Source: a virus
Taxonomy: Duplodnaviria > Heunggongvirae > Uroviricota > Caudoviricetes
Length of the DNA: 64,000 bases
Reading direction: 5' to 3' (one strand)
IMG/VR virus record: IMGVR_UViG_3300021140_000485
The notes beneath the pieces were generated by a model. That model saw only the letters and a list, made by a program, of their open reading frames with translations, did not search any database and was not told where the DNA came from. Shown here in pieces: positions 58 to 34,696 of the stretch; position 1 is the first letter of the stretch; the number at the start of each line of letters is the position of its first letter. The translations under genes were made by a program, and so were the position numbers.

Positions 58-582
58 TTATTCAGCAGATTCAGTAACCATTTCTTCAACTACTTCCATC
101 ATCTGAATGTCCATAGATAAAGTAACGTTCTCACTTAGCAATACACCACCTGTTTCCAATGGTGCGTTCCACGTAAGACCGAAATCATTTCTATTGATTG
201 TACCTGTGATTTCCCATCCGTGTTTTGTATTTCCCCACGGGTCAACACTCATACCGTTATACTCAGTGTGAAGCCAAATTTCTTTGGTGATTCCTTTGAT
301 TGTAACACTTCCTGTAATTGTTGTCATATCTTCAATCATCTTACCTGCGAAAGTGATTGTAGGGTACTCCTCTGAGTTAAAGAAGTCCGCCGATTTAAGA
401 TGGTTATCTCTGTCAACATTCCCTGTGTTGATTGTGTTAGTGTTAATAGAGACGAATACACTTCCGTCTTCTTGTACACCACCACCAAAGGTACTGAAAT
501 TACCTTTAACCGTAGAAATCATTAAGTGTTTTACTTTGAACCCAACTTCTGAGTGGGCACTATCAATTGTCATTCTTTTCAT
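58..582 (-). CDS. YceI-like periplasmic (polyisoprenoid-binding) protein. The start is trimmed to the internal MKRM, because the upstream 51 codons of the ORF run through the 62-bp intergenic repeat.
   Basis: The 175-aa product has an N-terminal hydrophobic signal-like segment and a YceI-family beta-barrel composition. ATG at 582. Confidence 0.65.
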   Translation of the reverse strand: MKRMTIDSAHSEVGFKVKHLMISTVKGNFSTFGGGVQEDGSVFVSINTNTINTGNVDRDNHLKSADFFNSEEYPTITFAGKMIEDMTTITGSVTIKGITKEIWLHTEYNGMSVDPWGNTKHGWEITGTINRNDFGLTWNAPLETGGVLLSENVTLSMDIQMMEVVEEMVTESAE

Positions 583-645
583 AATATATTTTGTTTTGTT
601 AAAATATAGATATAATATTGGGTTAGGTAAACCCCCATTTAATAG

Positions 646-707
646 AATATGAAACCTGAGAATGAATGTAGGTGTGGTGTGTGAGGATTTATCCCGAACC
701 TCACCCA
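646..707. repeat. Copy A of a 62-bp intergenic element, 61/62 identical to 3611..3672. It contains the hairpin arms GTGAGG / CCTCAC when read on the minus strand.
   Basis: Direct sequence comparison. It lies 60 nt upstream of the minus-strand YceI-like gene. Confidence 0.85.
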
Positions 708-748
708 CATAGAGTGAGTGAACTGTATTGTCCATTACTCTTTTTTAA

Positions 749-1390
749 TTATACGTTCTCTCTAATTATTTTACATGGGTTACCGTATGCAACCACATTG
801 TCAGGGATATCTTTAGTTACAACTGAACCTGCACCTATAATAGAGTTCTTACCTATTTTAACTCTGTGTAATATGTTTGTCCCCATACCTATTGTTGTAC
901 CTTCCCCTATGGTTACGTTTCCCGCAATGTTGGTGCCAGGATTAATGGAACAATAGTCACCTATGATTGTGTGATGACCAATAGATACGTGTCTGTTGAT
1001 TGATACAAAATCCCCCACTGTGGTATGTGCTGCAATTGAAACCTTTGAGTTAATTAGAACCCCACGTCCGAGTTCACTCATGTGTGATATGTCCAAACCA
1101 TCGTGTATAACATTAATGAACTTATTAATGTCAGGATTTATTGTCTCTATAATCTTTATCTTATGTTGAGGTTGGTATACTCCGAGAACAATCTTATCGT
1201 AGTTGTTTAAATCCACATCATCAAACAATTCTATATTGAAACCATCATGTGTGAATGTATTAATAATCGGTAACCCCAAATTGTTGTATATGTGAATGTC
1301 AGGCATTCTTCTGTTTATTGAATATAAATTATCCAATATCATTGTTATTATACTATCCCCCTTACCGAGAATTAATAATTTTGTTTCCAT
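749..1390 (-). CDS. Hexapeptide-repeat (left-handed beta-helix) sugar N/O-acetyltransferase, NeuD/PglD-like.
   Basis: The C-terminal half is built of [LIV]GxxxxI hexapeptide repeats ('VSIGHHTIIGDYCSINPGTNIAGNVTIGEGTTIGMGTNI') and the N-terminal part is Rossmann-like, as in NeuD. Confidence 0.8.
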   Translation of the reverse strand: METKLLILGKGDSIITMILDNLYSINRRMPDIHIYNNLGLPIINTFTHDGFNIELFDDVDLNNYDKIVLGVYQPQHKIKIIETINPDINKFINVIHDGLDISHMSELGRGVLINSKVSIAAHTTVGDFVSINRHVSIGHHTIIGDYCSINPGTNIAGNVTIGEGTTIGMGTNILHRVKIGKNSIIGAGSVVTKDIPDNVVAYGNPCKIIRENV

Positions 1391-2189
1391 ATCCCTTTTC
1401 TCTTAATTCCGCAGATGTATAATGTTCCATATCAAATTCATCCATCAATCTGTGGGCTCTTTTTAATAACTGCATGTTGGTGGTTTTTTCCTTACCCCTA
1501 TAATATAAATTATCTTCCAAACCTATTCTGATTCCATCAAAATCCAATAACCCATAGGTCATACTCTTTAACTGTTGTGAACCTATTCCACCCAAACACG
1601 TAAATGAGTTCGTTGGTAAGTTATTTTTAATTGTTGATAACGTACCAAATTCACATTGACCATTGTAGATATTTCCCAAAATCATATTGATGTGGTGTGG
1701 AGACTTTAATATGTTCTTTGAAATAAGATAGTTTGTATAGTTTAACATACCCGTATCAAAACATTCTATCTCAGGTTGTACCCCGTATTTGTCCATCTCA
1801 TTAATTAAAGACAATATCATCTCAGGTTGGTTAACCGATGTTCCTGATGGGAAGTTTAATGATGACATTGTTAGTGAACCCATGTCAGGATATAATTGTA
1901 GAACCTCCGCTCTTTGTGATAGTTCAGGGAAATTCCTACCTGTTAATGAAACGCAAATCAATAACTCAGGACAATACTTCTTTATCCCCTCTATTATCTT
2001 CTGATATACTTCCTTCTTGTATGTATTTTCTAACGTAACCTCATCCCTTGCATGAAGATGAACAATGGATATACCAATCTCATTTGCACCTATTACCTCA
2101 TCCACAATCTCACTTGGAGTTAATGGAGCAAACGAATTAATCCTCGTTGTCTGAGTACCTGTTGGAGTAAAATTAATTATTTTCTTCAT
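1362..2189 (-). CDS. BKACE / DUF849 family enzyme (3-keto-5-aminohexanoate cleavage enzyme-like beta-keto acid cleavage).
   Basis: The N-terminal signature 'PTGT....PLTPSEI....A...G.SIVHLHARD' matches the Kce family TIM-barrel. Confidence 0.75.
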   Translation of the reverse strand: MKKIINFTPTGTQTTRINSFAPLTPSEIVDEVIGANEIGISIVHLHARDEVTLENTYKKEVYQKIIEGIKKYCPELLICVSLTGRNFPELSQRAEVLQLYPDMGSLTMSSLNFPSGTSVNQPEMILSLINEMDKYGVQPEIECFDTGMLNYTNYLISKNILKSPHHINMILGNIYNGQCEFGTLSTIKNNLPTNSFTCLGGIGSQQLKSMTYGLLDFDGIRIGLEDNLYYRGKEKTTNMQLLKRAHRLMDEFDMEHYTSAELREKGYGNKIINSR

Positions 2190-3141
2190 AAATTAGGTGA
2201 GATTTTAATTTAAAAATCTCTTTGAAAGTATCATCAAAATGTTTTTCGTATATTATTTTTTCTGAATTATCAATTCTGATGGTTTTTACCTCATCCATAG
2301 GATACAAATTTTCAATATACCAATGGTTAGGTTTTACATTCAAGGTATGCACTTCGGAATTATTTATAATAACAATTACAGTTTCCTCTTCAATTTTTTG
2401 TGAATTGTAGAAAAGTTTGATTTTGTTGTCTTTTTTATCATAAAAAAGAGTATAATGTAAATTTCTTTCGTAAAAATGTTCTCCCTTTTTGAAAAAACCA
2501 TTGAGTTCAGATTCTTTTCTAAACAAAACATTTGTGTGATTTTTGAACTCTGTTTTGGTAATATATTCCAAATTTACATTCTGTCCAAAATCTCTCATCC
2601 TTTTTTCAATCTCATCACGATTATAATCGGTGAACAATCGTGGTAATTTGTCAACCCTTACAGACTTTAAAGACCCAAACATAAACCCATCACTGTCACC
2701 AGTTGTTGTGTAAAGAATTGAGTCATAATTTTCTAATAACTCATTGTGTTGTTTTAAAATTTCTAAATCAAGGACCTCACAATCATACTCAATGTGATGT
2801 ATATTTTTATATCCAAAATTGATTGCAATTTGTGATGCGATTGAAAACATTCTGTAGATTGCAAACCCATAAAAGTTTTTTATGAAAAAAATGGATTTTA
2901 TGATTTTGTCACCAAAAGAAAAAAAGAAACCAGGAGGTAATAAATCTACGTCCTCAGAAGTATCATTCAAATAGTCGTAGAAATAAAAATTACATTTTTT
3001 TTGAATATGAAAAGGAATATGAGTGTGAGATAATAAGGCAATGTGATATCCACTTTTTGAAACAGAATCAATACACCTCTCAAGAGCTCTTTCTTGTTCT
3101 TCCGATGGACAATGAGCCGTTATAAAAATCAAATCTTTCAT
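2173..3141 (-). CDS. Hypothetical protein. It may be a nucleotide-sugar transferase-like protein within the glycan-modification cluster.
   Basis: 322-aa ORF that is Phe/Tyr-rich. There is no firm motif; its context is the acetyltransferase and BKACE genes. Confidence 0.5.
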   Translation of the reverse strand: MKDLIFITAHCPSEEQERALERCIDSVSKSGYHIALLSHTHIPFHIQKKCNFYFYDYLNDTSEDVDLLPPGFFFSFGDKIIKSIFFIKNFYGFAIYRMFSIASQIAINFGYKNIHHIEYDCEVLDLEILKQHNELLENYDSILYTTTGDSDGFMFGSLKSVRVDKLPRLFTDYNRDEIEKRMRDFGQNVNLEYITKTEFKNHTNVLFRKESELNGFFKKGEHFYERNLHYTLFYDKKDNKIKLFYNSQKIEEETVIVIINNSEVHTLNVKPNHWYIENLYPMDEVKTIRIDNSEKIIYEKHFDDTFKEIFKLKSHLIYEENN

Positions 3142-3176
3142 TCAATAAAAAATAACAAAATAACAAATTCTGTAAA

Positions 3177-3212
3177 TAAAAAACCCCCACTTTATGTGAG
3201 GGTCTATTTTAT
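3177..3212 (-). terminator. Intrinsic terminator of the conserved family: 'AAAACCCCCAC-tttat-GTGAGGG' followed by a T-run on the minus strand.
   Basis: GC stem with one conserved C·A mismatch, followed by U-run. It lies at the 3' end of gene 3209..3583. Confidence 0.6.
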
Positions 3213-3583
3213 TGTTTGTTAAACGTGAGTGTTATATCACCACCACTTTCAAATTCATTCCACGCTAAGAGTGTTTCTCCACCGTTTTGTGTCTGAGTCC
3301 ACGTCTTACCGTTTGCGTCCGCAATCATCTCAATAGTTTGGTCATTGTCCGCCATCCATCCACGGTCCACATACACTCCCGCCTCAGGACCAAATGAAAG
3401 GTTACCTTGCATATACCATACATTCTCCTGAACCCAAAATAAAAGACTCTTGGTGTTGTGTACCTCTGTTGATGACCACGACACTTGTGAATTCGGTCCA
3501 ATTGTTTGATTGCCAGGTCCAACACCATCAATAGTTAAATTGTATTCAGTGTTGTTGTTAATTGTAATATTTGCTTGCCACAT
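3209..3583 (-). CDS. Hypothetical small beta-rich (lectin-like?) protein.
   Basis: 124 aa, rich in N/T/G/W. Preceded on the minus strand by copy B of the 62-bp element. Confidence 0.55.
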   Translation of the reverse strand: MWQANITINNNTEYNLTIDGVGPGNQTIGPNSQVSWSSTEVHNTKSLLFWVQENVWYMQGNLSFGPEAGVYVDRGWMADNDQTIEMIADANGKTWTQTQNGGETLLAWNEFESGGDITLTFNKQ

Positions 3584-7680: not shown

Positions 7681-7953
7681 ATGGATAACGCAATCGTCAT
7701 AAAAAAACTACTACTAGCCCTTTTGAGGAGACAGTACCCCGAAATTGTTGATGTCGTAGTTAGTGTTAGAAAGGACCCTATGTTAGAATATCGCACAGAT
7801 TATTTTATCTACATTGGAGTCGCTTATAAGGACTTGTTAAATATCAATGCAAGTAAAATGATGAACGATGCCAGAGAAATTGTTTACGATGTTGCAGGAG
7901 GAAGAAATAGTTTTAATAGCGTTTCAATTCAAACCTATGACCCGAATAATTAA
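7681..7953 (+). CDS. Hypothetical protein.
   Basis: 90-aa ORF on the minority strand. Confidence 0.45.
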   Translation: MDNAIVIKKLLLALLRRQYPEIVDVVVSVRKDPMLEYRTDYFIYIGVAYKDLLNINASKMMNDAREIVYDVAGGRNSFNSVSIQTYDPNN

Positions 7954-8381
7954 GTTGTTGAATTAATCGACTCAGCAATCATCTTTTTAAATTTTGTCGT
8001 ACTCCATCCGTGAGAACGATTTAAATAATGAATGTCAATTGGAAGTTCCTTACCAGTAAAGTCTTTATCTTTGTAATCATCACCCAGGAATCTCACACCA
8101 GGACTTACTTTCAAAATAAGTTCAACCAATTCTTTTTCTGTTGTGTAGGTTGAGACCTCATTAACGTATTTAAGTGATAACAACATTTTGACTCTCTCCT
8201 CAACACTTAGGATTGGTTTTAACTTCTCAGGTCTTTCGATGGTTGGGTCAGTGTGCAACAACACGTGGACCCAATAACAATGTTCTTTCATCTCTTTGAA
8301 CATCTCGATATATCCAGGATGGATAACATCAAAATTACCAGCAATCACACCAATACTATACTTCTCACTATTTGGTTTCAT
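7950..8381 (-). CDS. Cytidylyltransferase-like nucleotidyltransferase (TagD / RfaE-domain-II fold).
   Basis: 'GVIAGNFDVIHPGY' matches the (T/H)xGH nucleotidyltransferase motif, with HPGY as a variant. 143 aa. Confidence 0.65.
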   Translation of the reverse strand: MKPNSEKYSIGVIAGNFDVIHPGYIEMFKEMKEHCYWVHVLLHTDPTIERPEKLKPILSVEERVKMLLSLKYVNEVSTYTTEKELVELILKVSPGVRFLGDDYKDKDFTGKELPIDIHYLNRSHGWSTTKFKKMIAESINSTT

Positions 8382-8390
8382 AAAATAAAA

Positions 8391-8789
8391 TTAAAAATGG
8401 TTCCTATAAAAATAAATTATGTCAGGAAACCTCTCAAATATCTTTGCCGTGACATCACATAACCACAGGTCTAAATTATAATCTATCGAGTAAATTGATG
8501 GTAACACATACCAAGCACCACCAATTTCTTTTTTACCGTCTTTAGTCTTAATCAAAGTGTATGATGCTTTCATTTTCTCATCCGACAAGGTACACTTGAA
8601 CTCACTATCACCTTGAGCAATTAATTCACAGAGATAGTCAGCACCTGATATCATCTCGAGTTCGTCAATATCACCTTCCCATTTGGGAATGTCCACAAAC
8701 CATCTGCTTTCAGGGGTTTTATAAAATCTATATGTTACTTCCATATTCTTGAGATTTGTTTTCTCAGAGGGGTTTTTATAATTATACAT
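8391..8789 (-). CDS. Hypothetical protein.
   Basis: 132-aa ORF. Confidence 0.5.
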   Translation of the reverse strand: MYNYKNPSEKTNLKNMEVTYRFYKTPESRWFVDIPKWEGDIDELEMISGADYLCELIAQGDSEFKCTLSDEKMKASYTLIKTKDGKKEIGGAWYVLPSIYSIDYNLDLWLCDVTAKIFERFPDIIYFYRNHF

Positions 8790-8866
8790 TATTAAAAAAA
8801 AAGTTTCAACTTGTTTGGGTAGATTAAACGGTAAAAACTTATATTTGTGGGTATTTATCTTTAACT

Positions 8867-9795: not shown

Positions 9796-10017
9796 TTACC
9801 AAGATTCAACATCAGTTAAATCAATTTCAACCTTAGCCAGGTGACTATAAACCACAAGACCATTTCCAATTCCTGTTGGAGTTATTTTCCAAGTGAATGT
9901 ACCATATTCTCCATAAATCGCTTTAATGTGTGATAACCATTCGTCATACATTTCCTGTTGTTTCTCATTAAGTTCCTCGTGAATTACAGTTTTTCTTATT
10001 TTATTCTCTTCCATCAC
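9796..10017 (-). CDS. Hypothetical protein.
   Basis: 73-aa ORF, 4-nt overlap with the RNA ligase gene. Confidence 0.45.
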   Translation of the reverse strand: MMEENKIRKTVIHEELNEKQQEMYDEWLSHIKAIYGEYGTFTWKITPTGIGNGLVVYSHLAKVEIDLTDVESW

Positions 10018-11027
10018 TTCTCGTTTAATAAGAATTTATTACTGATTGCTTTGAAACTTATTTTGGTATCGTAAGACCTAACCACAACACCTTCACGTTC
10101 AGTATTCCTGTTTAATACGGAACTACCTTCAGCATATTTTAACATACCTTCAACAGAATTTGGTAACAAGAAGTCCATCTCCAAGAAAGGAACATAATCA
10201 AAACCACAATTCTCCATAAGGTCAACAAACTTTGGCATAGTATATCTAACACCATTATCAATGTCAAAGGCGTTGAAGAACTTTACCATCTGACCTTTAA
10301 TTTTGTATGGGTTACCCTGAATACCTTCACCAATTAATTCACCTTGTAAACAAACGTTTTTGCCCAATGAACTTAACTTTTCTTCTATGTTCATTTCACG
10401 AGCAACTTTCCAAAAAGTATTACCTTCAGTTTCTAAAAGTTCCAAATTACGAGAACAAACACCAAACTCACCTTTTCTAAAGTAGAATGTTGCAGATGAA
10501 CCATCCAACTTTTCAGTTACGTAAAATTTGTGTTCACTCCTGTAACACATCGCAGAGTATTCAACAGAGATGTTCTGAACCCTTTCCTCATCAGTTTTGT
10601 GTAAGAACGATGGGAACGGACCTTTGACTTTACCAGCAAGTTCTGCGGGGATTGGTGGTTCGTATTTAACGATACCCAATCTCTCGGTAACATCAAGACC
10701 CTCATAAGCTGTCCAACCAAAGTCCCCGAAGACACTCATAGGTAAGATTAAACCTTGTGAAACTTGTCCACGAAGTTTAATGGTTTTTAAACGGAAACCT
10801 TCTTGGTCACCCATTTTTTTGTAAGACGATTTACGCAAGAACTCGAAATCTTCTTTGATTGGTAGGAATGAATCAATCTCACAGTATACACACAAGTCAC
10901 CAGGTTCGTATTCACCTTTCTTGGTAACAACCTTCCAACCTCCTACAACGGCAACTTCAATCGCATCGGCTCCGACGATTTCTTGGATGTCAGTAACTTT
11001 TCTAATAGACGCTAATTTTCTTTCCAT
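10014..11027 (-). CDS. ATP-dependent RNA ligase, DraRnl/Rnl5-like (N-terminal OB-like domain plus nucleotidyltransferase).
   Basis: Adenylation motif I 'TEKLDGSS' (KxDG) and covalent nucleotidyltransferase motifs are present. The N-terminus 'GADAIEVAVVGGWKVVTKKGEY' resembles DraRnl. Confidence 0.75.
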   Translation of the reverse strand: MERKLASIRKVTDIQEIVGADAIEVAVVGGWKVVTKKGEYEPGDLCVYCEIDSFLPIKEDFEFLRKSSYKKMGDQEGFRLKTIKLRGQVSQGLILPMSVFGDFGWTAYEGLDVTERLGIVKYEPPIPAELAGKVKGPFPSFLHKTDEERVQNISVEYSAMCYRSEHKFYVTEKLDGSSATFYFRKGEFGVCSRNLELLETEGNTFWKVAREMNIEEKLSSLGKNVCLQGELIGEGIQGNPYKIKGQMVKFFNAFDIDNGVRYTMPKFVDLMENCGFDYVPFLEMDFLLPNSVEGMLKYAEGSSVLNRNTEREGVVVRSYDTKISFKAISNKFLLNEK

Positions 11028-11053: not shown

Positions 11054-11743
11054 TTATCTGATTTTACCAACACTAAACCCGTCGCTATCTACAACAATCC
11101 CTGTTCTTTTGAAGAAATTTTCATAGAAGTAGTCATTTAATTCATCTTGTATCTCCATACTAACTTCCCATCCAATCTCCTCATCATTAACAACATCTTT
11201 CAAATTTCTAGGTTCATAGTCACCTGTCATAACTAAACTAACAGTACCATCTACGATTGCCCAAAAATCAATTCGTTTTAAATCTTCATTTACGTGGTAG
11301 TTTTTTATTTTGAAGTCAAAGTTGTATCCACCACTTTCTACGTGATGTTTTGATAACAAAAAGTCTAAATTATTTTTAATTATATTATCAAAACCACCCA
11401 ACACATTTCTAATTAAAATATGACGAGCTTTTTCAAGAGTCATCCCATTTTTACCAATAAAAAACTCTTTGAATGTGTCATCCAATAAAGGTCGTTTAGT
11501 TAAAACTCTTTTAACAGTCTCATCGAATGATGTGTCTTCATTGATTGGATTTGGTTGGTTATCGTGCCAACACTTATGACAAATGTATGTGTCATCACCA
11601 CCTTCAGATATCTTCCAAGACCACCCACAATTATCACATATAACCTCACCATTCTCAACTTTTTCGGTAAGTAATGTCATAACTTGTTTTATACGTGAAA
11701 TGTCTTCAGATAGTCTCATATTAATAAATATCCCTATCACCAA
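11054..11743 (-). CDS. Zinc-ribbon protein with the leader 'MRLSEDISRIKQVMTLLTEK'. The likely start is the internal Met at 11719.
   Basis: CxxC...CxxC ('CDNCGW...ICHKCW'). Confidence 0.55.
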   Translation of the reverse strand: MVIGIFINMRLSEDISRIKQVMTLLTEKVENGEVICDNCGWSWKISEGGDDTYICHKCWHDNQPNPINEDTSFDETVKRVLTKRPLLDDTFKEFFIGKNGMTLEKARHILIRNVLGGFDNIIKNNLDFLLSKHHVESGGYNFDFKIKNYHVNEDLKRIDFWAIVDGTVSLVMTGDYEPRNLKDVVNDEEIGWEVSMEIQDELNDYFYENFFKRTGIVVDSDGFSVGKIR

Positions 11744-12456
11744 TAACCAACATCTTTCTTAAAATGCTCAATGTTGTGTCTGTTAAAATAGTTGCTTATT
11801 ACCAATCTAATCATTCCAAAATACCCCATCTTTAGAAATCTACGATTATCTTGCCCAACATAGTGTTTTGATATTTGGAACTTTTTTGGACTGTATTGTT
11901 TACTGAGATGATAATCTTCTGAGTGTTGGAGTGTTTCATCGAACCCATCTGTACTGAAGAACGCACTACGAGTTGTCATAAAATAAGTCCCTAACGCAAA
12001 CGGAACTTTCTTTTTCATAATGTGATTAATCCTGTTGAAAATCTTAAATATCATTTCACATTTAACATCACCATTTATACACCTAACATTACAAGTCAAC
12101 AAATCAAGGTTGTTATCCTCCATTTGTTTTAACGTGTCTTTTATTTGATTTGGGTTTAATAACGTTGAGTCAGCATCAAGGAATAAAATATATGGTGTAG
12201 TACTTCTCATCGCACCTTGATTTCTCCCGTAAGCTACAGGACCACCATTAATCAACTCAATTTTGATTGTTGGCTCATAATAAGTTTTTAAAGACTTAAC
12301 TAAGTCTCTTGTACCATCGGTGCTCTTAGCGTCTGCGACAATAACTTTAGTTCCCCAAATCCCATTTTGTGAAGCGATACTTGTAATTGTAGCATCAATA
12401 TACTTCCATTCATTATAGGATGGTATCACAATTGTTAGTTTATCTTTAATACTCAT
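11737..12456 (-). CDS. Family-2 glycosyltransferase.
   Basis: 'LTIVIPSYNE', 'VIVADAKSTDGT' and 'LFLDADS' (DxD) are GT-A fold motifs. Confidence 0.8.
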   Translation of the reverse strand: MSIKDKLTIVIPSYNEWKYIDATITSIASQNGIWGTKVIVADAKSTDGTRDLVKSLKTYYEPTIKIELINGGPVAYGRNQGAMRSTTPYILFLDADSTLLNPNQIKDTLKQMEDNNLDLLTCNVRCINGDVKCEMIFKIFNRINHIMKKKVPFALGTYFMTTRSAFFSTDGFDETLQHSEDYHLSKQYSPKKFQISKHYVGQDNRRFLKMGYFGMIRLVISNYFNRHNIEHFKKDVGYW

Positions 12457-13135
12457 TCAATTCAAATTTTCCGTTATTATAAATAATGTAGGATTTGTTT
12501 TCAATCCAATCACCACAGTTAAGATAATGAACATCACTCACCATCTTATCAGATGGTTGATGTATGTGTCCACAAATCACTGTATCACATCCTCTTTTTT
12601 TCGCTTGGTAAGCCAATTGTTTCTCAAAGGATGTCATAAATTGTACCGCCTCTTTAACACTGTCTTTAAGGTATTTAGATAATGAAAACTTCATACCCAT
12701 ACCTTTTAGTTTTCTATCGACATAAATTGCTAAGTCATATCCCATTGAACCGATAACACCTAACCATTTCCACTTGACAACACCGTCATATAAATCACCG
12801 TGTGTTACAAAAACATTTTCACCAAACTTATATTCGTTGACGATTTTTATGTTACCGAAATCAATATCATCATACGACCTTAAGAAGTCATCGTGATTAC
12901 CTGATACGTAAATAACCTCAGTCCCATTCTTTGAGTAAGATAATATCTTTCTAATCACGTTTGTGTATGATTGTTTCCAATAAAATCTTTTTTTAAGTAA
13001 CCATCCATCTATAATGTCCCCCACCAAAAAAAGATATTTTGGTTCATACTTTTTAAGGACTTCAATTAGTTCTTCAGCGTTTACTCCTCGAGCACCCAAG
13101 TGAACATCTGAGATAAACAACGCATCAATTTTCAT
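12446..13135 (-). CDS. Calcineurin-like metallophosphoesterase (LpxH-like pyrophosphatase architecture).
   Basis: 'ISDVHLG' and 'LVGDIIDGW', plus later GNHD/GH motifs. Confidence 0.7.
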   Translation of the reverse strand: MKIDALFISDVHLGARGVNAEELIEVLKKYEPKYLFLVGDIIDGWLLKKRFYWKQSYTNVIRKILSYSKNGTEVIYVSGNHDDFLRSYDDIDFGNIKIVNEYKFGENVFVTHGDLYDGVVKWKWLGVIGSMGYDLAIYVDRKLKGMGMKFSLSKYLKDSVKEAVQFMTSFEKQLAYQAKKRGCDTVICGHIHQPSDKMVSDVHYLNCGDWIENKSYIIYNNGKFELNEY

Positions 13136-14868: not shown

Positions 14869-14896
14869 CCCCACCGTTAAGTGGGGTTCAAGATTA
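14869..14896 (-). terminator. Intrinsic terminator (CCCCAC-cgttaa-GTGGGG, a perfect stem) with a U-run on the minus strand.
   Basis: Lies at the 3' end of the cyclophilin gene. Confidence 0.65.
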
Positions 14897-15343
14897 AATC
14901 AATTCCATAGAATTGATTTGGTCACCTTGTTGGAGTTGGTCAATGATATCAACACCTTCAACAATCTTCCCAAAACAGGTATGATTACCGTCCAAGTGTT
15001 GGGTGTTCTGTCTATTGTGACAGATAAAGAACTGTGAACCTCCTGTGTTACGACCAGCGTGTGCCATTGAAAGAACACCTTTATCGTGGAATTGTTTTGG
15101 CGCTGTTACTTCACATTGGATTGTGTATCCAGGTCCTCCATTTCCAACACCGTTAGGACAACCACCTTGGGCAACAAATCCAGGAATCACTCTATGGAAA
15201 TTAAGTCCGTCATAGAATTTCTTGTTAATCAAACTCTTAAAGTTTTCTACCGTGATTGGAGTTTCGTTGTCATACAACTCCGCAATCATATCACCTTTTG
15301 CTGTTGAGATTTTTACTTTACTCATATATCTTGTTTTTAACAA
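14894..15343 (-). CDS. Cyclophilin-type peptidyl-prolyl cis-trans isomerase.
   Basis: 'FHRVIPGFVAQGG' and 'GGSQFFIC' are cyclophilin signatures. Confidence 0.85.
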   Translation of the reverse strand: MLKTRYMSKVKISTAKGDMIAELYDNETPITVENFKSLINKKFYDGLNFHRVIPGFVAQGGCPNGVGNGGPGYTIQCEVTAPKQFHDKGVLSMAHAGRNTGGSQFFICHNRQNTQHLDGNHTCFGKIVEGVDIIDQLQQGDQINSMELI

Positions 15344-18064: not shown

Positions 18065-18733
18065 TTAACTGTCAACTTCCGTGGGGTCAATTCTTTTTTC
18101 GTGATGGTCTTTAGGAAGTGTTAACCTTACTTTTGGTCGGTCCTTCAACAAAGAACGAATCTCACTTAAATCATAAGGATATAAGTTGTTACCGTCAACC
18201 CCAACGTCCATTGCTCGTCCATCAGCAATCTTAAGATGTGATGGTAAGTGAACGTGTCCGTGTAAGTGAATTACCCCATCATTCATACCATTCCAAGACG
18301 CTATTGGATAGTGTAGACATACGATAGAAATCTTATCTACAATCTTTCCGTTGGGAATCCTCAAATCTAAATGTAAGTAATCAAAACATCCTTTGAACAC
18401 CCTTTGGATGTCTTCTTTATCTCTACGAATGTGGTGGTCGTGGTTACCAAAAACTAAGTAAACGTTTTTACATAAGATTCTGTTACGAAACTCTTCAATC
18501 TTATCGAATCCACCGAAAGACCAGTCACCTAAGTGAATCAATATATCATTCTCACCAATCATCTCATTGATGTTGTTGACCAAGACATCATTCATATGGT
18601 CAAGGGATTTGAAATCTCGAGTTAGATTTTCAGCGCCAACCCATTTTGTAGTTGCGCTACAAATATTACCGTGACCATAGTGAGTATCACTGGTAAAAAA
18701 TAACCGCTGTCCTTTCTCTAATACAAGTTTCAT
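18065..18733 (-). CDS. Calcineurin-like metallophosphoesterase.
   Basis: 'TSDTHYGHGN', 'LGDWSFGG', 'GNHDHH', 'GHVHL'. Confidence 0.75.
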   Translation of the reverse strand: MKLVLEKGQRLFFTSDTHYGHGNICSATTKWVGAENLTRDFKSLDHMNDVLVNNINEMIGENDILIHLGDWSFGGFDKIEEFRNRILCKNVYLVFGNHDHHIRRDKEDIQRVFKGCFDYLHLDLRIPNGKIVDKISIVCLHYPIASWNGMNDGVIHLHGHVHLPSHLKIADGRAMDVGVDGNNLYPYDLSEIRSLLKDRPKVRLTLPKDHHEKRIDPTEVDS

Positions 18734-19626: not shown

Positions 19627-19914
19627 ATGGCCGACAGGAATTTTTATATGAGAAGAGTATTGACCAAAATTGTAAAAAATATGGTTAGTAAAAATCCTGC
19701 ATTCAAAAATATTCGTTCAGTTGAAATACAATTCTTACTTAAATCTCCTGTTAGAAGCGCAATGTGTGATTGGGTTTATGGTCTTACTATCAAGACATAT
19801 AACGATGATGTTAACCAACCTCAAATAATTTCTCAAATAAAAGAAAGAATTGATTCTGTTACATCACAACTAACAAAAGACACTTTCTGTCTCACCGACT
19901 ATTACTTCGAGTAG
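19627..19914 (+). CDS. Hypothetical protein.
   Basis: 95-aa ORF. Confidence 0.4.
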   Translation: MADRNFYMRRVLTKIVKNMVSKNPAFKNIRSVEIQFLLKSPVRSAMCDWVYGLTIKTYNDDVNQPQIISQIKERIDSVTSQLTKDTFCLTDYYFE

Positions 19915-21029
19915 TCGTATTTACGAAAAATCCCATCTACCGTATGTAACGCTTGAGCAACCACTTGGTGCATATCATAATAAGCATAGGTCCCAAGTCT
20001 ACCCCCAAATATGTATTTAGATTCAGACTCTGTCAATGATTTATATTTTTCATAAATCTCAACATTTTTACCGTCTCTGATTGGGTAATATGGTTCGTTC
20101 TCACCAGTATACTCACAAGAGTATTCCTTACTGATATAAGTACCTTTTTGATTCTTAGGGTCAAACCATTTATGTTCTAATATTCGAGTATACTTAGTAT
20201 CAGAATCAGTAAAATTCATTACAGGGTTTCCTTGGAAGTTGTCAACTTCTAATTGGTAATTCTCCCATCTAAGACTACGATATTCCAATCGACCAAATTC
20301 GTAATCGTAAAACTTATCAATTGGTCCTGTGTAAATTATCTTATCAGATAAAGACTCAAGGATATCTCTATTCTCAAAAAAATCAAATTCAGTCAGTACT
20401 TCAATACCTGATAGTAGTTTTTCAAAAATTTGGGTATAACCTCCGTCAGGAATTCCTTGGTACTTGTCATTGAAATAATTGTTATTCCAAGTAAATCTAA
20501 CAGGTAATCTTTTAATAATGGATGGTGGTAGTTCAGAACATTTCTTATCCCATTGTTTCTCAGTATAACCTTTAATCAACTTTTCATATATGTCAGTCCC
20601 TACCATTGAAAGAGCTTGTTCTTCCAAATTAGTGATAGGTCCCTTATATTTTTGTTCATCAATCATATACTGTGCCTTTTCAGGTGTGTTAACACCCCAC
20701 AGTTGATTGAATGTCCACATATTGAAAGGTAATGAGTAAATCTCACCCTTATAGTTAGCCAAAGGTGAATTAACAAACTGATTAAAAGTTGCAAATCTGT
20801 TTACGTAGTTCCAAACTCTTTCATCATTAGTATGGAATATGTGAGCACCATACTTGTGAACGTGTATACCGTCTATATTTTCAGTATAACAGTTTCCACC
20901 GATATGATTTCTTTTTTCAACAACTAATACGTTGAATTTCTTACTTAGTTCGTGGGCGCAGATTGCTCCAAAGAGACCTGCCCCCACGATTACAAAGTCA
21001 TAATGTCTATAGGAAGTCAAAAACGACAC
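19902..21029 (-). CDS. glf: UDP-galactopyranose mutase.
   Basis: N-terminal FAD fold 'YDFVIVGAGLFGAICAHEL....VEKRNHIGGNCYT' and length/sequence colinear with Glf. Confidence 0.85.
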   Translation of the reverse strand: MSFLTSYRHYDFVIVGAGLFGAICAHELSKKFNVLVVEKRNHIGGNCYTENIDGIHVHKYGAHIFHTNDERVWNYVNRFATFNQFVNSPLANYKGEIYSLPFNMWTFNQLWGVNTPEKAQYMIDEQKYKGPITNLEEQALSMVGTDIYEKLIKGYTEKQWDKKCSELPPSIIKRLPVRFTWNNNYFNDKYQGIPDGGYTQIFEKLLSGIEVLTEFDFFENRDILESLSDKIIYTGPIDKFYDYEFGRLEYRSLRWENYQLEVDNFQGNPVMNFTDSDTKYTRILEHKWFDPKNQKGTYISKEYSCEYTGENEPYYPIRDGKNVEIYEKYKSLTESESKYIFGGRLGTYAYYDMHQVVAQALHTVDGIFRKYDYSK

Positions 21030-22164
21030 TGTCAGGAGATAATACAGGTTTATTAATCTTGTTCTCTAATCTTTCTTTGAACTCATACAAGAAGTTAGAT
21101 GAATTAGTATAACATCTATCCTCAATCAAGAAACACAAATTAGGATATGGGTTTTCTCTACCTTCATTAATCATTTGTTCAACAACCTCAAGAGCTTCTT
21201 TGTTCCTTTGTCTTTTCTCATAAAAGAATGCCAAATACATCAAGTGTTCATTTCTTGTTGGAGAGAACGGTCCTGCAGATTTGTAGTGTTCTTCCGCTTT
21301 ATCATACTCCCCTCTAAAGTTATATGCTTCACCCAAAAGTATAAATGTTAGATATGACATCTCATCTAATCTTGCAGGTTTACCAGTATTAAACCAGTTG
21401 TGATTAAGTGCTAAAAACTTATTAAAGTAGAAAATCGCTCTACGAGCATATTCGTCTGAGTGGTCCTTTCCAAATGCAAGTTCATCAGGATTTCCATAAC
21501 AATCAGCATAACTCTTACCAACATACCAAAGATGATACATATCCTCATTGATGGTGTTTCCAACAACTTTGTCAATTTCTAATTCCAAAGCATCTCTCAA
21601 AAACTTTCTTGGTGCAAACCAAGTCTGACCATCATTTGTGATTAAGTGTCTAAATCCAAAAGGTAGAACCATTCTTTGGAAATTTTCACCGACTTCAGGT
21701 AAGTGAATTGTTTCGTGTCTTTTATCGTGTTGAAAAAACCAAGGTCTTTTTGCATTCCATAACCAAGTTCTGTAATACTTTGTACCCATTGCCTGAGCTG
21801 TAATGTTGAATGAATCAATTGAAGTGTCTTCCAATACAGTCCAATCAAAGTCCTCATCAACAATTAGTTGTTCATCAGCATCCATTCTCAGAATCCAATC
21901 ACATCCGTGGTCAGCCTTCAAACATTCCTGTAAGGTATGGTCTCTATTCCATCCTGGATATTGCCATTCAATCTCATACAGGAATCCAGGAATCCCTTTT
22001 TCTTTGAAGTAGTTTCTTATAATGTCTTGTGTTCCGTCAGTAGACCCATTGTCCTGTATAACCCAATAATCAATATATTGGAAACAGGAGTCTAACATTC
22101 TTGTGATAGTTCTGGCCTCATTAGCCACCATCGCGTTTAAGCAAATTTTGGTTTTTTTATTCAT
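21007..22164 (-). CDS. Glycosyltransferase (GT-A-like N-terminal domain) with a C-terminal helical-repeat region.
   Basis: 'YWVIQDNGSTDGT' and 'MDADE'. The C-terminus has TPR-like helices. Confidence 0.65.
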   Translation of the reverse strand: MNKKTKICLNAMVANEARTITRMLDSCFQYIDYWVIQDNGSTDGTQDIIRNYFKEKGIPGFLYEIEWQYPGWNRDHTLQECLKADHGCDWILRMDADEQLIVDEDFDWTVLEDTSIDSFNITAQAMGTKYYRTWLWNAKRPWFFQHDKRHETIHLPEVGENFQRMVLPFGFRHLITNDGQTWFAPRKFLRDALELEIDKVVGNTINEDMYHLWYVGKSYADCYGNPDELAFGKDHSDEYARRAIFYFNKFLALNHNWFNTGKPARLDEMSYLTFILLGEAYNFRGEYDKAEEHYKSAGPFSPTRNEHLMYLAFFYEKRQRNKEALEVVEQMINEGRENPYPNLCFLIEDRCYTNSSNFLYEFKERLENKINKPVLSPDSVVFDFL

Positions 22165-23404
22165 AAATGTAATTCATTACTTGTTCTTGTTTATAGTATT
22201 TTTTGATTGGGACACTGTTTTGGAACTTTTGTGAGTGTTGTGTAATCTCATCCCAATTCCAATCAAAATAACCCATTTCTTCAATTCTGTCGTGTATTCT
22301 TTTATCATAGAAGTCCCTGATTAATCTGGCCCTACGATTAATATCTGTTGCATTATTATCAACTGTTGAGTTGTTATTGTTGTATTGTAGATATAACACC
22401 TTCTTTACGTGAATCATCTTGGTTTCTAAAAATGTACGAATAAGAATCTCCAAGTCATCAGCAACAGGTGTTAATTTATTGTGTCCTGAAATATTATGAT
22501 AAACACTTCTCTCCCACATTCTAGCGTGGTTTGGCATTGTGATATTGAATCTAATTGTGAGTGGGTTTACATCAGGGTACCAATGAGCAAGTCTATCAAC
22601 ACCGTCAACATTTACCCAACTGTGTCCAGCATACCCAAAGTCAAAATAGTTATCGTGACGAGCATACCAATTACCAGTCCAATCGTGGTCATAAAACTTA
22701 GGTTCACCGTCCTCGTATATCTCTGAACAATCAGTATAAAGAAATCCCGCGTCAGGGTATTTTAATATTGCATCATTAGCGGTTTCAAGACAAGTTGTAA
22801 CCAAACAATCATCGTGGTCCAATTCAATCAACCAATCACCATCACCTAACATAGCTGCACGATGTTTAGCCAAACCAATATTACCACCCGATAATGGATA
22901 AATCCTGTGAGGTTTTACCCGATAGTCTTTCTCCGCAATTTCAGTTATCATCTCCCAAGTTTCAGGGTCAGGCGAATCATCAACCACAACCCATTCCCAA
23001 TTATCAAAGGTTTGGTTGTTTAAAGACTCATAAGTCCTATAAATCCTTTCTCCTGTTTTGTAGGTTGGTGTGAAAATTGTAAATCTTGGTCTAAAATATT
23101 CACAGTTTCTAAACACAGTCTGACAAACAATTACGTTCGCCAAAATTGCTTCATCAATCGGTTCATCATAGTGAATGTGAAATCTTTTCAAATGATAGTG
23201 TGGGATGTTTACTTCTTCACCAAAACTTATAATTAAGTCAGGTTTATATTTTGTATAATCACCAACGACATCGTTTGTATATGGTAGATTATAAACAACA
23301 ACATCATCAAACAGATGTTCTTCCCAGTATATTTGTGAGATTAAGGTTGTTTCACCTTCCGTACCTAATCCATACACTATTGCTGACGGTTTTTTTGTCT
23401 TCAT
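22157..23404 (-). CDS. Family-2 glycosyltransferase with an N-terminal extension.
   Basis: 'FTIFTPTYKTGERI', 'WVVVDDSPD' and 'IELDHDD' (DxD). Confidence 0.75.
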   Translation of the reverse strand: MKTKKPSAIVYGLGTEGETTLISQIYWEEHLFDDVVVYNLPYTNDVVGDYTKYKPDLIISFGEEVNIPHYHLKRFHIHYDEPIDEAILANVIVCQTVFRNCEYFRPRFTIFTPTYKTGERIYRTYESLNNQTFDNWEWVVVDDSPDPETWEMITEIAEKDYRVKPHRIYPLSGGNIGLAKHRAAMLGDGDWLIELDHDDCLVTTCLETANDAILKYPDAGFLYTDCSEIYEDGEPKFYDHDWTGNWYARHDNYFDFGYAGHSWVNVDGVDRLAHWYPDVNPLTIRFNITMPNHARMWERSVYHNISGHNKLTPVADDLEILIRTFLETKMIHVKKVLYLQYNNNNSTVDNNATDINRRARLIRDFYDKRIHDRIEEMGYFDWNWDEITQHSQKFQNSVPIKKYYKQEQVMNYIYE

Positions 23405-27908: not shown

Positions 27909-28259
27909 ATGAGAGTAAAAATAGGTGAAAATATATTCAATGTGAAGATTAGACACGACAATAAAGGTCGTGCTATGGGTATGATGGGTCGTAAATTTAC
28001 TGACGAGTATAACGGTATGTTATTCTTTATGGATGAAGACTCAAGTTGTTTTTGGATGAAGAACTGCGTCATTCCTCTTGATATCATATTCATTGATAAT
28101 AGAGTAATAACTAAGATACACCACGACTGTCCTCCTTGTAAAGAAGATGACTGTCCAAGTTATTGTGGAAAGGGTGGAATGATTTTAGAAATTATGGGTG
28201 GTTCTGCAAAAGAACTCGATATCAAAAAAGGTGATGAGATTAAGATTCTTGTTGACTAG
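27909..28259 (+). CDS. DUF192-family protein.
   Basis: 'GMMGRKF....GMLFFMDEDSSCFWMKNCVIPLDIIFID' follows the DUF192/COG1430 pattern. Confidence 0.6.
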   Translation: MRVKIGENIFNVKIRHDNKGRAMGMMGRKFTDEYNGMLFFMDEDSSCFWMKNCVIPLDIIFIDNRVITKIHHDCPPCKEDDCPSYCGKGGMILEIMGGSAKELDIKKGDEIKILVD

Positions 28260-29658
28260 CATCAATCTTCTCTTGTAACTTTCTCAAAAATTCCTCACCA
28301 ATCATTTTAACAAACTTAATGTAAGGAGCGTCCTCTCTTTCAGGGTCGTATCTGTATGAACCTCTTGGTGGTCTTGTACTTCTTCCAAGATAGTTAAGTC
28401 CTGATATGTTGGTAATACATTTGTGTCCACCTGAGTTAGCTTGAATCAAGTCCCAAGCGTTGATACCAATCTTATCTAACATTTGCATTTCTTCTTCAGA
28501 TAGTTGGTCGTATGGTTTTTCCATCATATCCTTAATTTTATCAAGGATTTTTTCACCACCATCCATCATCATCAACTTACCACCATAAATTGCATCGAAG
28601 TCTTTGAATGTAAATCCTACTGATTCAGGTCCAACTGATGATTCACTCACATACTTTATCGTTGATAATGGGATTGTTCTATCTTTAAGTTGTCCCTCCC
28701 ATTTGGCCAGAACCTCTTGTGCAATCTCACCGAGATTAACACCTTTGAGTTCTCTATCTTTTTTGAATGGATTACAAGATGCCTGTACTAACCCTAACGG
28801 CCACATAATAATTAAGAAGTCAGCTTCAGGATTGTTTCTAAAAGGAGTGTATCGGTCATATGACCCAGTACCTTTTAAACTACCCATACCATACTGAACG
28901 ATGATATTACCAATCTTCCTAACATTTGGATGACCTTTCATTGAGTCCATATAGGTCTCAGCGTTTCTTTGAAGGTCCTCAGGTTTTTCTCTTGTATTGG
29001 AACCCATCCAAGATTTGATGTTGTTTAATATTGAAAGTAAGGATGGTTCCGAATCATTAACCAAGTATTCAAGGAACCCTTTCTTGTTTTTGAACGCCAA
29101 CAATAGTTTGTTTGTAACAAATCCTAACAACATTTTGTTACTAGCCAAATCTTTTTCTTTGTTAAGTCTAAACAAATAATTGATTACATCCTTGGTTGTT
29201 AAACCATATTTGGCAAAGTCTGCTGAGTCGACAGTTGATATTAATCTAATGTCATCAGCAGGAAATAATTCTTTTGGTGAGATAATTTGTGAAATGGTTT
29301 CAACGTTTGACCTTGCCTGTCTAAAAGACTTTGAAGCGTCTTTCTCAGCACCGACTTGTTTGTCGTGGTGGTCAGTGTGAATAACAAACATTGGTTTACC
29401 GTGAGCAAAATCAACTAAGACTGGCATTACATCACCAGATGCATCAGGTTTTTTAACTGAGAATTCTTTATCTCCATACTGTATAACCTCACTATCAACA
29501 ACTTTAATACCATTATCTTCAAGGTATTTTTTCATTGCAATTGCAGTTGTTACACCATCCAAATCTTGGTGGAAATATATTTTAGCCTTTGGGTATCTTT
29601 GTGCCAAAGCCTTAATGTCTCTTAAACCTGATTCCTTAATTATTTTTTTCATACACAC
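28240..29658 (-). CDS. DHH-family phosphoesterase (NrnA/RecJ-like DHH plus a C-terminal domain).
   Basis: 'FHQDLDGVTT' (DxD) and 'VIHTDHHDK' (DHH) motifs. 472 aa. Confidence 0.7.
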   Translation of the reverse strand: MCMKKIIKESGLRDIKALAQRYPKAKIYFHQDLDGVTTAIAMKKYLEDNGIKVVDSEVIQYGDKEFSVKKPDASGDVMPVLVDFAHGKPMFVIHTDHHDKQVGAEKDASKSFRQARSNVETISQIISPKELFPADDIRLISTVDSADFAKYGLTTKDVINYLFRLNKEKDLASNKMLLGFVTNKLLLAFKNKKGFLEYLVNDSEPSLLSILNNIKSWMGSNTREKPEDLQRNAETYMDSMKGHPNVRKIGNIIVQYGMGSLKGTGSYDRYTPFRNNPEADFLIIMWPLGLVQASCNPFKKDRELKGVNLGEIAQEVLAKWEGQLKDRTIPLSTIKYVSESSVGPESVGFTFKDFDAIYGGKLMMMDGGEKILDKIKDMMEKPYDQLSEEEMQMLDKIGINAWDLIQANSGGHKCITNISGLNYLGRSTRPPRGSYRYDPEREDAPYIKFVKMIGEEFLRKLQEKIDASQQES

Positions 29659-33532: not shown

Positions 33533-34696
33533 TTAATCGTTATAAATTGAACCACTTTTATTTTCAGACTCTTCGAATTGATGTTGTTCCATAATATCTT
33601 TAAGTGGTGATTTTTGAGTATCAACTTTAGTATTCATATTATGAATAATCTTATCAAGAGTTAATGCAAAGTCCAGAGTTTCGGATATGATACCAACAAT
33701 TTTATATGGGTCACCATTTGATGCCGGTCTACGGTCTTCAACATAACCCTTCCATTCTTTTGATGTAGACAATGGAACTCTGATTGATGCACCTCGGTCA
33801 GCAACCCCCCAACTAAACTTGTCAATAGATTGGGTTTCGTGTTTACCAGTCAAACGAAGATTGTTATCAGAACCGTAATTGTTAATGTGTAACTGATGAC
33901 GTGAATCAAAGGCGTTAAAGATGTTTTTGAAGTATTCATCACCACCTTCATTTCTCATCTTGTCATTTGAGAAGTTACAGTGTAATCCTGAACCATTCCA
34001 ATCACCCATCACAGGTTTAGGGTGGAATTCAATCTTAAAACCATAGTCCTCAGACATTTGTTGTAAAATGTATCTCGACATCCACAAATCATCACCGGCC
34101 TTTAATTTACCTTTGGAGAATACCTGGTACTCCCACTGACCCAATAAGACCTCGGCGTTTGTACCTGTAATTTCAATACCTGCCAAGATACAATTTTCCA
34201 TATGAGTATCCACAAATTTTCTACCGTTAACTTGTCCGTTACCTACACCACAATAGTATTTTCCTTGTGGTTCAGGATATCCATTCTCAGGGAAACCCAA
34301 AGGTCTACCATCTTTCATAATGGTATACTCTTGTTCAAAACCAAACCAAAGGTCCTCTTCTTCTTCCCCAACAAGACTTCTTGTATTTGATACGTGTGGA
34401 GTCCCATCGGGATTCATAACCTCACACAACACCAAGAAAGACCATAGACCACCTTCGTTAAGTGAGTTGTGATAAACTCTAACAGGTTTCAAAATACAAT
34501 CAGAAAAATGTCCGTCAGCTTGTTGTGTTGATGAACCATCAAAACTCCACTCAGGGCAATCCTTCAGTGTTATAATATCCCCATATGGAATATTCTGAAG
34601 ACCAGTCTCTTCTTTTTCAATCACCTTAACCTTACTTCTAAGATTAGGTTCTGGCTGATACCCATCCAACCACACATATTCTAATTTAACTTTCAT
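33533..34696 (-). CDS. Glutamine synthetase type-II-like protein.
   Basis: 'LEYVWLDG', 'FDGSSTQQADG..SD..L.PV', 'LVLCEV', 'GVADRGASIRVP' and 'NGDPY' are colinear with the GSII beta-grasp and catalytic domains. Confidence 0.75.
   Translation of the reverse strand: MKVKLEYVWLDGYQPEPNLRSKVKVIEKEETGLQNIPYGDIITLKDCPEWSFDGSSTQQADGHFSDCILKPVRVYHNSLNEGGLWSFLVLCEVMNPDGTPHVSNTRSLVGEEEEDLWFGFEQEYTIMKDGRPLGFPENGYPEPQGKYYCGVGNGQVNGRKFVDTHMENCILAGIEITGTNAEVLLGQWEYQVFSKGKLKAGDDLWMSRYILQQMSEDYGFKIEFHPKPVMGDWNGSGLHCNFSNDKMRNEGGDEYFKNIFNAFDSRHQLHINNYGSDNNLRLTGKHETQSIDKFSWGVADRGASIRVPLSTSKEWKGYVEDRRPASNGDPYKIVGIISETLDFALTLDKIIHNMNTKVDTQKSPLKDIMEQHQFEESENKSGSIYND

Follow-up and report, generated by a model that had tools for sequence, protein, structure and literature searches.

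Why should a tailed phage carry a gene for an enzyme that acts on beta-keto acids? The question is raised by three minus-strand genes near the left edge of a 64,000-nt stretch of DNA (IMG/VR record IMGVR_UViG_3300021140_000485, Caudoviricetes), which was analysed as a whole and is called the window below; its source is an uncultured jumbo phage. An earlier note on this DNA had read the three open reading frames (ORFs; 749-1390, 1362-2189 and 2173-3141) as a hexapeptide acetyltransferase, a BKACE enzyme and a transferase-like protein, and had proposed that the BKACE and the sugar N-acyltransferase together make an unusual N-acyl amino sugar. All three ORFs lie where they had been placed, including the 29-nt overlap between the first two, and the proposal gains support from the conserved pairing of the two genes, from their neighbours and from fusion proteins, as far as sequence comparison can tell. 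On balance, we favour the view that the trio is one co-transcribed and translationally coupled glycan-tailoring cassette, in which acyl-CoA made by the BKACE would feed the acyltransferase and the resulting sugar would be moved by a putative glycosyltransferase with a GT-A fold.

The three proteins and the layout of their genes

The second gene of the trio (2189-1362, minus strand) encodes a 275-aa protein that matches the Pfam BKACE model PF05853 (DUF849) with an E value of 8.6e-61. The match is full-length (model positions 2-270 of 274) and reaches 206.1 bits against a gathering cut-off of 24.8, which leaves the family named in the earlier note in little doubt. Alignment to Kce (2y7d, 2.7e-29) and to 3no5 places the zinc ligands at H44, H46 and E225, the catalytic base at E142 and two further active-site residues at R221 and D226. 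In the order H44, H46, E142, R221, E225 and D226, these correspond to what we take to be His46, His48, Glu143, Arg226, Glu230 and Asp231 of Kce, once the 6-residue tag of chain 2y7d_A is allowed for. Proteins in which any one of these active-site residues is missing are classed as 'not BKACE' (groups G6 and G7). Absence of the active-site residues would, by the earlier note, have refuted its proposal; instead, all six are present and are invariant in 113 of 113 members of the clade (33 unique phage and 80 bacterial sequences), and the enzyme is, judged by these residues, catalytically competent. Because it belongs to the fold family of Kce (PDB 2Y7D-G) and has identical zinc ligands, catalytic Glu and Arg/Asp residues, the same chemistry would be expected, namely the conversion of a beta-keto acid and acetyl-CoA to acetoacetate and an acyl-CoA.

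The phage enzyme also differs from Kce and from the BKACE family at large, in that it has a pocket signature of its own, lies in a context of glycan synthesis rather than catabolism and is encoded by a phage. The signature of the clade (N6, F7, P9, R85, T107, S109, S110, S118, N150, Y151, Y154, N168, N173, Q178 and Q206) is mostly polar and uncharged and is not that of Kce, and Glu14 of Kce is replaced by Gln13 in the window protein. The score is under half of the cut-off for every characterised NCBIfam equivalog; the best, Kce (NF052387, lysine fermentation), gives 177.4 bits against 382, and the protein is thus not a member of that equivalog. No lysine-fermentation genes were seen in any of the viral or bacterial loci described below. 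A search with the BKACE gave some 3,500 related representatives of clusters formed at 90% identity, and the top 120 are 84-99% identical to the phage protein. In a neighbour-joining tree, the phage BKACEs form one monophyletic group, with a contig from a Cytophagales metagenome-assembled genome as sister, and by these comparisons the protein is a member of a distinct clade common to phages and Bacteroidota.

The third gene (1390-749, minus strand) encodes a 213-aa protein with a Pfam Hexapep match at 1.2e-18, and the best NCBIfam model by far is TIGR03570, which describes NeuD/PglB/VioB sugar acetyltransferases (7.6e-42). The NeuD/PglD-type label of the earlier note is upheld by these matches, with the reservation that the TIGR03570 alignment covers residues 58-207 only and, at 143.2 bits, stays just under the cut-off of 160.8. 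Relatives in the PDB are PerB (4ea7, 1.8e-21), VioB, PglD, WeeI and PglB. H139 aligns with the catalytic histidine of PerB, the residue that is changed in the PerB mutant structures 4eaa and 4eab; we take this beta-helix histidine to be PerB His141 and PglD His125. Across 30 phage homologues, neither H139 nor H140 varies. By sequence, nothing matches the first ~57 residues, in the region where enzymes of the PglD type have an alpha/beta domain that binds the nucleotide sugar; ahead of the beta-helix, the predicted secondary structure is beta-alpha-beta-beta-beta-alpha, in a model that is poor (predicted local distance difference test, pLDDT, 63) and with which a fold search returned nothing significant. 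In length (~200-220 aa), left-handed beta-helix, catalytic histidine and the company of DegT genes, the protein resembles PglD, PerB, VioB, WeeI and NeuD. It is set apart from these TIGR03570 enzymes by its score, by its unmatched N terminus and by its constant pairing with a BKACE, which suggests an acyl donor other than acetyl-CoA. Most likely, to judge by these alignments, it is an acyl-CoA-dependent sugar N-acyltransferase with a left-handed beta-helix, of the PglD/PerB/VioB/NeuD type.

The 322-aa product of the first gene (3141-2173, minus strand) has no Pfam, NCBIfam or PHROG family and by these searches falls in no existing CAZy or Pfam glycosyltransferase (GT) family; at least 605 homologues were found in metagenomes, none of them with a name. 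Its AlphaFold2 model (pLDDT 90.9) finds its best matches in the viral structure library BFVD among phage and giant-virus glycosyltransferases, with a top E value of 8.8e-19. As modelled, residues ~1-210 form a Rossmann-like nucleotide-diphospho-sugar transferase (GT-A) domain, followed by a C-terminal beta-sandwich (~230-320), and the vaguer 'transferase-like' label thereby acquires a predicted fold. A possible DXD-like motif, E118-Y-D120, stands directly after the predicted strand 113-118; GT-A enzymes carry a metal-binding DXD (or EXD) behind their fourth strand. In a set of 50 sequences, H39, H41, D56, H115, E118 and D120 never vary. The family looks phage-specific, since the 80 bacterial loci contain none of its homologues. 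We therefore describe the protein, from its model, as a putative glycosyltransferase of a new, apparently phage-restricted GT-A family; it appears to be soluble.

In the ORF listing, the BKACE and acyltransferase genes overlap by 29 nt and the 322-aa and BKACE genes by 17 nt. The same three ORFs are found in independent gene calls on public contigs with identical genes, and the overlaps are kept in homologues (for example, a BKACE at 8001-8825 with its acyltransferase from 8800). A Shine-Dalgarno-like AAGGGA motif precedes the acyltransferase start within the 3' end of the BKACE gene. An intrinsic-terminator-like hairpin (3181..3205, minus strand; 10-bp stem with 5 G-C pairs, then a T-run) closes the upstream 124-aa gene and forms the upstream edge of the cassette. 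Eight nucleotides ahead of the ATG of the 322-aa gene lies a promoter-like site, TTTACA-16-TATTTT with an upstream TG (3149..3176, minus strand); it is a consensus match only, and as such matches in the region are not above the shuffled expectation, only its position is suggestive. DNA homology to other phages begins at 3176-3210. In two relatives (L001 and L002), the DNA match to the window comprises only 749-3176, at 96% identity and between unrelated flanks; because this homology spans essentially just the trio, the trio seems to move as a unit. In the closest relatives (L003 and L021), the glycosyltransferase is 100% and the BKACE 97% identical to the window, whereas the acyltransferase is only 66% identical. 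This contrast points to recombination inside the module with a breakpoint at the BKACE/acyltransferase junction, possibly reflecting a swap of acceptor specificity.

Conservation of the gene pair in phages and bacteria

Among the IMG/VR relatives, the acyltransferase gene lies directly downstream of the BKACE gene and overlaps it in 42 of 42 loci (BKACE identity 58-98%), which places the arrangement of the trio far beyond chance. About 30 of the 42 also have a linked GT-A gene, which usually lies just upstream of the pair and, in L019 and L025-L027, downstream of it. The earlier note would have abandoned its proposal if homologues of the three genes did not co-occur in other genomes; they do, and the pair recurs in bacteria. 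A fourth gene stands beside the pair in 32 of the 42 loci, usually just downstream of the acyltransferase. It encodes a DegT/DnrJ/EryC1-like protein of 187-210 aa (mini-DegT) that keeps the SFHxxK motif with the pyridoxal-phosphate lysine (for example, L032:9742-10332 and L151:11464-12027) and is shorter than normal sugar aminotransferases by ~35-60 internal residues and the entire C-terminal domain. That this protein (~196 aa) is half of a split or recoded aminotransferase was considered and rejected, as the downstream gene varies by locus and independent gene calls agree on the ends. A second phage lineage, less closely related (contigs of 270-335 kb), also has the pair, inside a co-directional island with GT2, GT11, a double-GT2 protein, mini-DegT, WbqC, S-adenosylmethionine-dependent methyltransferases, a GNAT-methyltransferase, a GH130-like protein and a sulfotransferase. 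In DNA and protein searches, 50,697 GenBank phage records contained no relative of the region, of the BKACE or of the 322-aa protein, and PHROGs holds no BKACE family.

A scan of one genome per species gave 80 bacterial loci with a BKACE 41-57% identical to that of the phage. They belong mainly to Bacteroidota (Cytophagales, Chitinophagales, Saprospiraceae, Algoriphagus, Marinifilum and Flavobacteriaceae), with some Planctomycetota and other phyla. By a strict criterion, a strong acyltransferase homologue lies within 700 bp of the BKACE gene in 30 of these loci; a member of the acyltransferase homology cluster lies within 6 kb in 44, usually immediately after the BKACE gene (median start offset +813 nt). 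The neighbours that recur are DegT (13 loci), GT2 (13 + 8), WbqC (7), an ArnT-like PMT_2 GT-C (6), the 3,4-ketoisomerase FdtA (5), GT4 and NAD-dependent sugar dehydratases. In Saprospiraceae and Chitinophagales, DegT-GT2-FdtA-PMT_2 is divergent from BKACE-acyltransferase, and other orders are WbqC-acyltransferase-BKACE-GT2 and BKACE-acyltransferase-WbqC-DegT; the Algoriphagus arrangement, BKACE-acyltransferase-GT2, follows the same three-gene logic as the phage. This repeated company of DegT, FdtA, WbqC, GT2 and ArnT-like genes is the context expected if the BKACE supplies an acyl donor for the N-acylation of amino sugars. The pseudaminic or legionaminic acid derivatives mentioned in the earlier note find almost no support, as NeuB is adjacent in only one bacterial locus.

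Where the hexapeptide gene is missing, the gene after BKACE encodes a GNAT protein of ~210 aa (c54; 28.9 bits, above the cut-off) or, in 18 loci, a 214-aa protein (U214) with a weak GNAT match (17 bits, below the cut-off). This replacement is seen in Flavobacteriaceae and some other bacteria (for example, L086:8871-9515 and L094:8825-9451), and AMP-binding or CapK-like ligases recur near the BKACE at such loci. Fusions were sought among the top 150 representatives of a search over 1.84 billion proteins, and at least nine join a GNAT domain to a BKACE, N-terminally in seven and C-terminally in two. A further fusion, of 632 aa, consists of a BKACE (48% identical to that of the phage) and an aminotransferase that matches Mimivirus L136 (7mfo) at 4e-70. 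It is encoded at 1408-3306 of a 4.9-kb contig with 20% G+C (L159; GCA_013566075.1, JACCDY010785037.1), which is possibly of giant-virus origin, and the adjoining gene encodes a full-length homologue of the acyltransferase (35% identity, 1e-38). Taken together, GNAT fusions in both orders, the adjacency of the hexapeptide gene and the joining of a BKACE to a sugar aminotransferase are strong evidence that these enzymes belong to one pathway and share a CoA thioester.

A candidate pathway and its alternatives

From the domain identities, intact catalytic residues, conserved linkage and fusions described above, a direction for the BKACE reaction, a hand-over of acyl-CoA, an amino-sugar substrate and an acceptor can be proposed as follows. 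The BKACE would catalyse a Claisen-type exchange between a free beta-keto acid (R-CO-CH2-COO-) and acetyl-CoA, yielding acetoacetate and R-CO-CoA, an acyl-CoA that the host would not otherwise supply. With this acyl-CoA, the hexapeptide transferase would N-acylate an amino sugar linked to a nucleoside diphosphate (NDP). In most related phages, the amino sugar would be made by the mini-DegT protein; tblastn found no aminotransferase, WbqC, FdtA or NeuB in the 64-kb window, and since an aminotransferase is lacking, the amino sugar must here be supplied by the host or by a gene beyond the window. FdtA in some of the bacterial loci suggests a 3-amino-3,6-dideoxyhexose, and the L136-like fusion suggests a 4-amino-4,6-dideoxyhexose. 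The GT-A protein would then transfer the acylated sugar onto a cytoplasmic acceptor; the candidates are a protein of the virion (the collagen-like fibres of the window, for example) and a lipid-linked precursor of the host envelope. We lean to a cytoplasmic acceptor because the GT-A protein appears soluble and neither a flippase nor a GT-C was seen in the phage regions.

Several observations sit less easily with this pathway. No gene for making a beta-keto acid is conserved in the cassette, and the substrate must therefore be a common metabolite; acetoacetate is an unusual by-product for a biosynthetic route. The scores of the BKACE clade, far below those of every characterised equivalog, do not allow a substrate to be assigned. 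The acyltransferase might simply use acetyl-CoA, and its sub-threshold TIGR03570 score, its ~57 unmatched N-terminal residues and its poor model (pLDDT 63) also count here. An aminotransferase is absent both from the 64 kb and from the 7 kb past the left edge, and one of the GNAT-BKACE fusions lies between a thiolase and a FadB-like gene, in a fatty-acid context.

To our knowledge, PerB, PglD, VioB and WeeI, the characterised proteins closest to the acyltransferase in structure, all use acetyl-CoA, and this speaks for a glycan cassette of another kind, in which the hexapeptide enzyme would be an ordinary N-acetyltransferase and the BKACE, rather than feeding it, would act elsewhere in the same pathway. 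The BKACE could work as a condensing enzyme, turning an acyl-CoA and acetoacetate into a longer beta-keto acid and acetyl-CoA, with the acid attached by another route. The AMP-binding or CapK-like ligases near the BKACE in some bacterial and phage-like loci would fit such activation of a free acid, whereas a ligase is missing from the four-gene cassette of the phages. Another possible target of the BKACE is a beta-keto acid borne by the sugar, for instance an NDP-4-keto-hexuronate or an N-malonyl or N-acetoacetyl group. The first intermediate of the Arn pathway is a beta-keto acid, and that pathway is mirrored in the Saprospiraceae layout of DegT-GT2-FdtA-ArnT-like genes and BKACE-acyltransferase. 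Nevertheless, we think an ordinary N-acetyltransferase beside an independent BKACE rather unlikely, because the catalytic set is that of the canonical CoA-dependent BKACEs and because the partner of the BKACE, adjacent or fused, is always an acyl-CoA-dependent acyltransferase, drawn from two unrelated folds, for which a shared CoA thioester is the simplest explanation.

The GT-A protein might instead modify phage DNA, with the BKACE and the acyltransferase tailoring an acylated amino sugar for base hypermodification. Its apparent solubility would suit this role, several DNA methyltransferases in the phage indicate an investment in DNA modification, and some phages are known to have glycosyltransferases that attach diverse glycans to DNA (Pyle et al. 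2024, cited in PMC12619734). In bacteria, the module sits with GT2 enzymes of the undecaprenyl-phosphate type and an ArnT-like GT-C, which indicates envelope glycans; the three collagen-like fibres, the UDP-galactopyranose mutase and the three further GT2 genes of the window suggest protein or surface glycans, and a non-exhaustive scan of neighbouring genes revealed no hydroxymethylase or other base-modification gene. For these reasons, DNA as the acceptor strikes us as very improbable. A catabolic use of the BKACE-acyltransferase pair, as an auxiliary metabolic module that would convert a beta-keto acid (an intermediate of lysine fermentation, carnitine or deoxyribonate) to acetoacetate and acyl-CoA for energy during infection, has in its favour that every characterised BKACE is catabolic (Bastard et al. 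2014, summarised in PMC4922564 and the NetSyn preprint), as well as the fusion flanked by the thiolase and FadB-like genes. We give it hardly any credence: no other gene of such a pathway lies near the BKACE in any of the 42 viral and 80 bacterial loci, the genes conserved around it encode sugar aminotransferases, ketoisomerases and glycosyltransferases, and a BKACE is fused to a sugar aminotransferase. A role in lysine fermentation or other catabolism was accordingly rejected on gene context.

We return to the BKACE as the source of the acyl donor, for which parallels exist in known systems. FdhC is, as we understand it, a GNAT that uses 3-hydroxybutanoyl-CoA on an NDP-amino-6-deoxyhexose. 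Such FdhC-type systems follow the same logic of non-acetyl N-acylation, and a GNAT can replace the hexapeptide enzyme beside the BKACE. They draw their acyl-CoA from general metabolism or have it made by FabG-like enzymes, and no BKACE was found in them in the literature searched. The Saprospiraceae and Chitinophagales loci share the parts list of the Arn pathway (ArnA/B/C/D/T), which makes the aminoarabinose of lipid A, namely DegT, an N-acylating enzyme, GT2 and an ArnT-like PMT_2 GT-C. They differ from it in that the sugar is probably a 3-amino-3,6-dideoxyhexose, as FdtA is present, and in that the ArnA formyltransferase is replaced by a hexapeptide acyltransferase and a BKACE; in the phage cassette, the glycosyltransferase is a soluble GT-A protein, and there is no GT-C. 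As in the autonomous glycosylation of Mimivirus (the R141/L136/L142 viosamine cluster), an aminotransferase, an N-acyltransferase and glycosyltransferases are encoded by the virus. Sugar genes are likewise virus-encoded in mycobacteriophage virion glycosylation, in the freshwater bS21 phages and in the 'moraphages', and in host range and gene content the present phage resembles those described in PMC12619734 and PMC9723584. None of these descriptions includes a BKACE, and the acyl group of Mimivirus is acetyl.

The earlier note had called the function unexpected for a phage, and this holds in part: the BKACE is new, whereas sugar and lipopolysaccharide (LPS) genes of freshwater jumbo phages of Bacteroidota have already been reported (PMC9723584, PMC12619734). 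We found no paper that links BKACE/DUF849 to phages, polysaccharides, O-antigen or LPS, and nothing relevant on WbqC. The published subdivisions of the BKACE family are catabolic and the sequences analysed come mostly from Proteobacteria, according to PMC4922564 and the NetSyn preprint. As sugar N-acylation cassettes and phage glycan genes were already known, what is new here is the acyl-donor enzyme in an amino-sugar tailoring module and the phage GT-A family. A wider proposal, which attracts us without quite persuading us, is that this distinct clade of BKACEs is dedicated to making acyl donors for the tailoring of glycans and is common to Bacteroidota and other bacteria, jumbo phages and an AT-rich giant-virus-like contig. 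A rare acyl-CoA (for example, a hydroxylated or keto short-chain one) would be put on an amino sugar by the adjacent or fused left-handed beta-helix or GNAT enzyme, and the phage sugar would decorate virions or rewrite the host surface. If so, this would be the first biosynthetic, non-catabolic role for a BKACE and would add a building block to viral glycans. The partnership of BKACE and N-acyltransferase would be a new route to N-acyl diversity on bacterial and viral glycans and would suggest a function for thousands of unannotated DUF849 proteins. The cassette may be regarded as a portable and abundant glycan-tailoring module of uncultured freshwater jumbo phages that also defines a putative new phage glycosyltransferase family. 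As it consists of three small soluble enzymes, the hypothesis can be tested directly in vitro.

Other genes of the window

The cassette is followed directly by a YceI-like gene (58-735, minus strand; ORF of 225 aa), the start of which is probably an internal ATG near 582 (174 aa), as in the gene call of the Joint Genome Institute (JGI); with this start, the spacer is 166 nt long and contains a weak hairpin at 634-620. In relatives that extend past the left edge, the acyltransferase is followed by the YceI-like gene and then by ORFs without a Pfam family. A cytidylyl/adenylyltransferase-like gene of the sugar-phosphate nucleotidyltransferase type (7950..8381, minus strand; Pfam CTP_transf_like 4.1e-11, PHROG 7878 1.9e-32) lies 4.8 kb upstream of the trio. 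It is possibly associated with the cassette; homologues lie 4-8 kb from the cassette in L010, L022, L023, L030 and L038. The other glycan genes of the window are those for a UDP-galactopyranose mutase and three GT2 proteins. The mutase gene is followed by two GT2 genes, one with TPR repeats (19902-23404, minus strand), and the third GT2 gene is at 11737-12456 (minus strand); this set looks like a second, separate glycan module, probably for a galactofuranose-containing glycan.

The window has a G+C content of ~32%, and its IMG/VR relatives include contigs of up to 335 kb. Near-identical genes are present in JGI metagenomes, including 3300002835 (B570J40625), whose sample prefix recurs in the supplement of a freshwater bS21-phage study. 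By family matches, the window also encodes a sigma-70 family factor (62651-63460, minus strand), a full DnaJ with J, Zn-finger and C-terminal domains (53523-54458, minus strand) and a glutamine-synthetase-like protein (33533-34696, minus strand), a combination akin to that of the 'moraphages' from freshwater metagenomes (PMC12619734). Dam-type and other DNA methyltransferases and one tRNA-Met are also encoded, and many ORFs have no family match. In PMC12619734 and PMC9723584, freshwater jumbo phages of Bacteroidota are described as carrying glutamine synthetase, DnaJ, several glycosyltransferases and LPS-type sugar genes. Defence against superinfection through surface remodelling is the role proposed for the sugar genes of similar phages in PMC9723584.

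Three tandem genes (39444-49284, minus strand) encode proteins of 1,052, 1,140 and 1,087 aa that consist mostly of collagen Gly-X-Y repeats, each with a C-terminal Peptidase_S74 intramolecular chaperone domain of the kind typical of phage fibres; because of this domain, they are probably fibres. The G+C content of this region is 0.43-0.56, compared with ~0.32 elsewhere, presumably because of the repeat codons. A cyclophilin-type peptidyl-prolyl isomerase (14894-15343, minus strand; Pfam 8.1e-42) may be a folding helper for the proline-rich collagen-like fibres. An RNA ligase with a PHA02142 OB domain, two calcineurin-like phosphoesterases and a protein with a weak DHH-family match, encoded at 10014-11027, 12446-13135, 18065-18733 and 28240-29658 (all minus strand), may form an RNA-repair or nucleotide-processing set.

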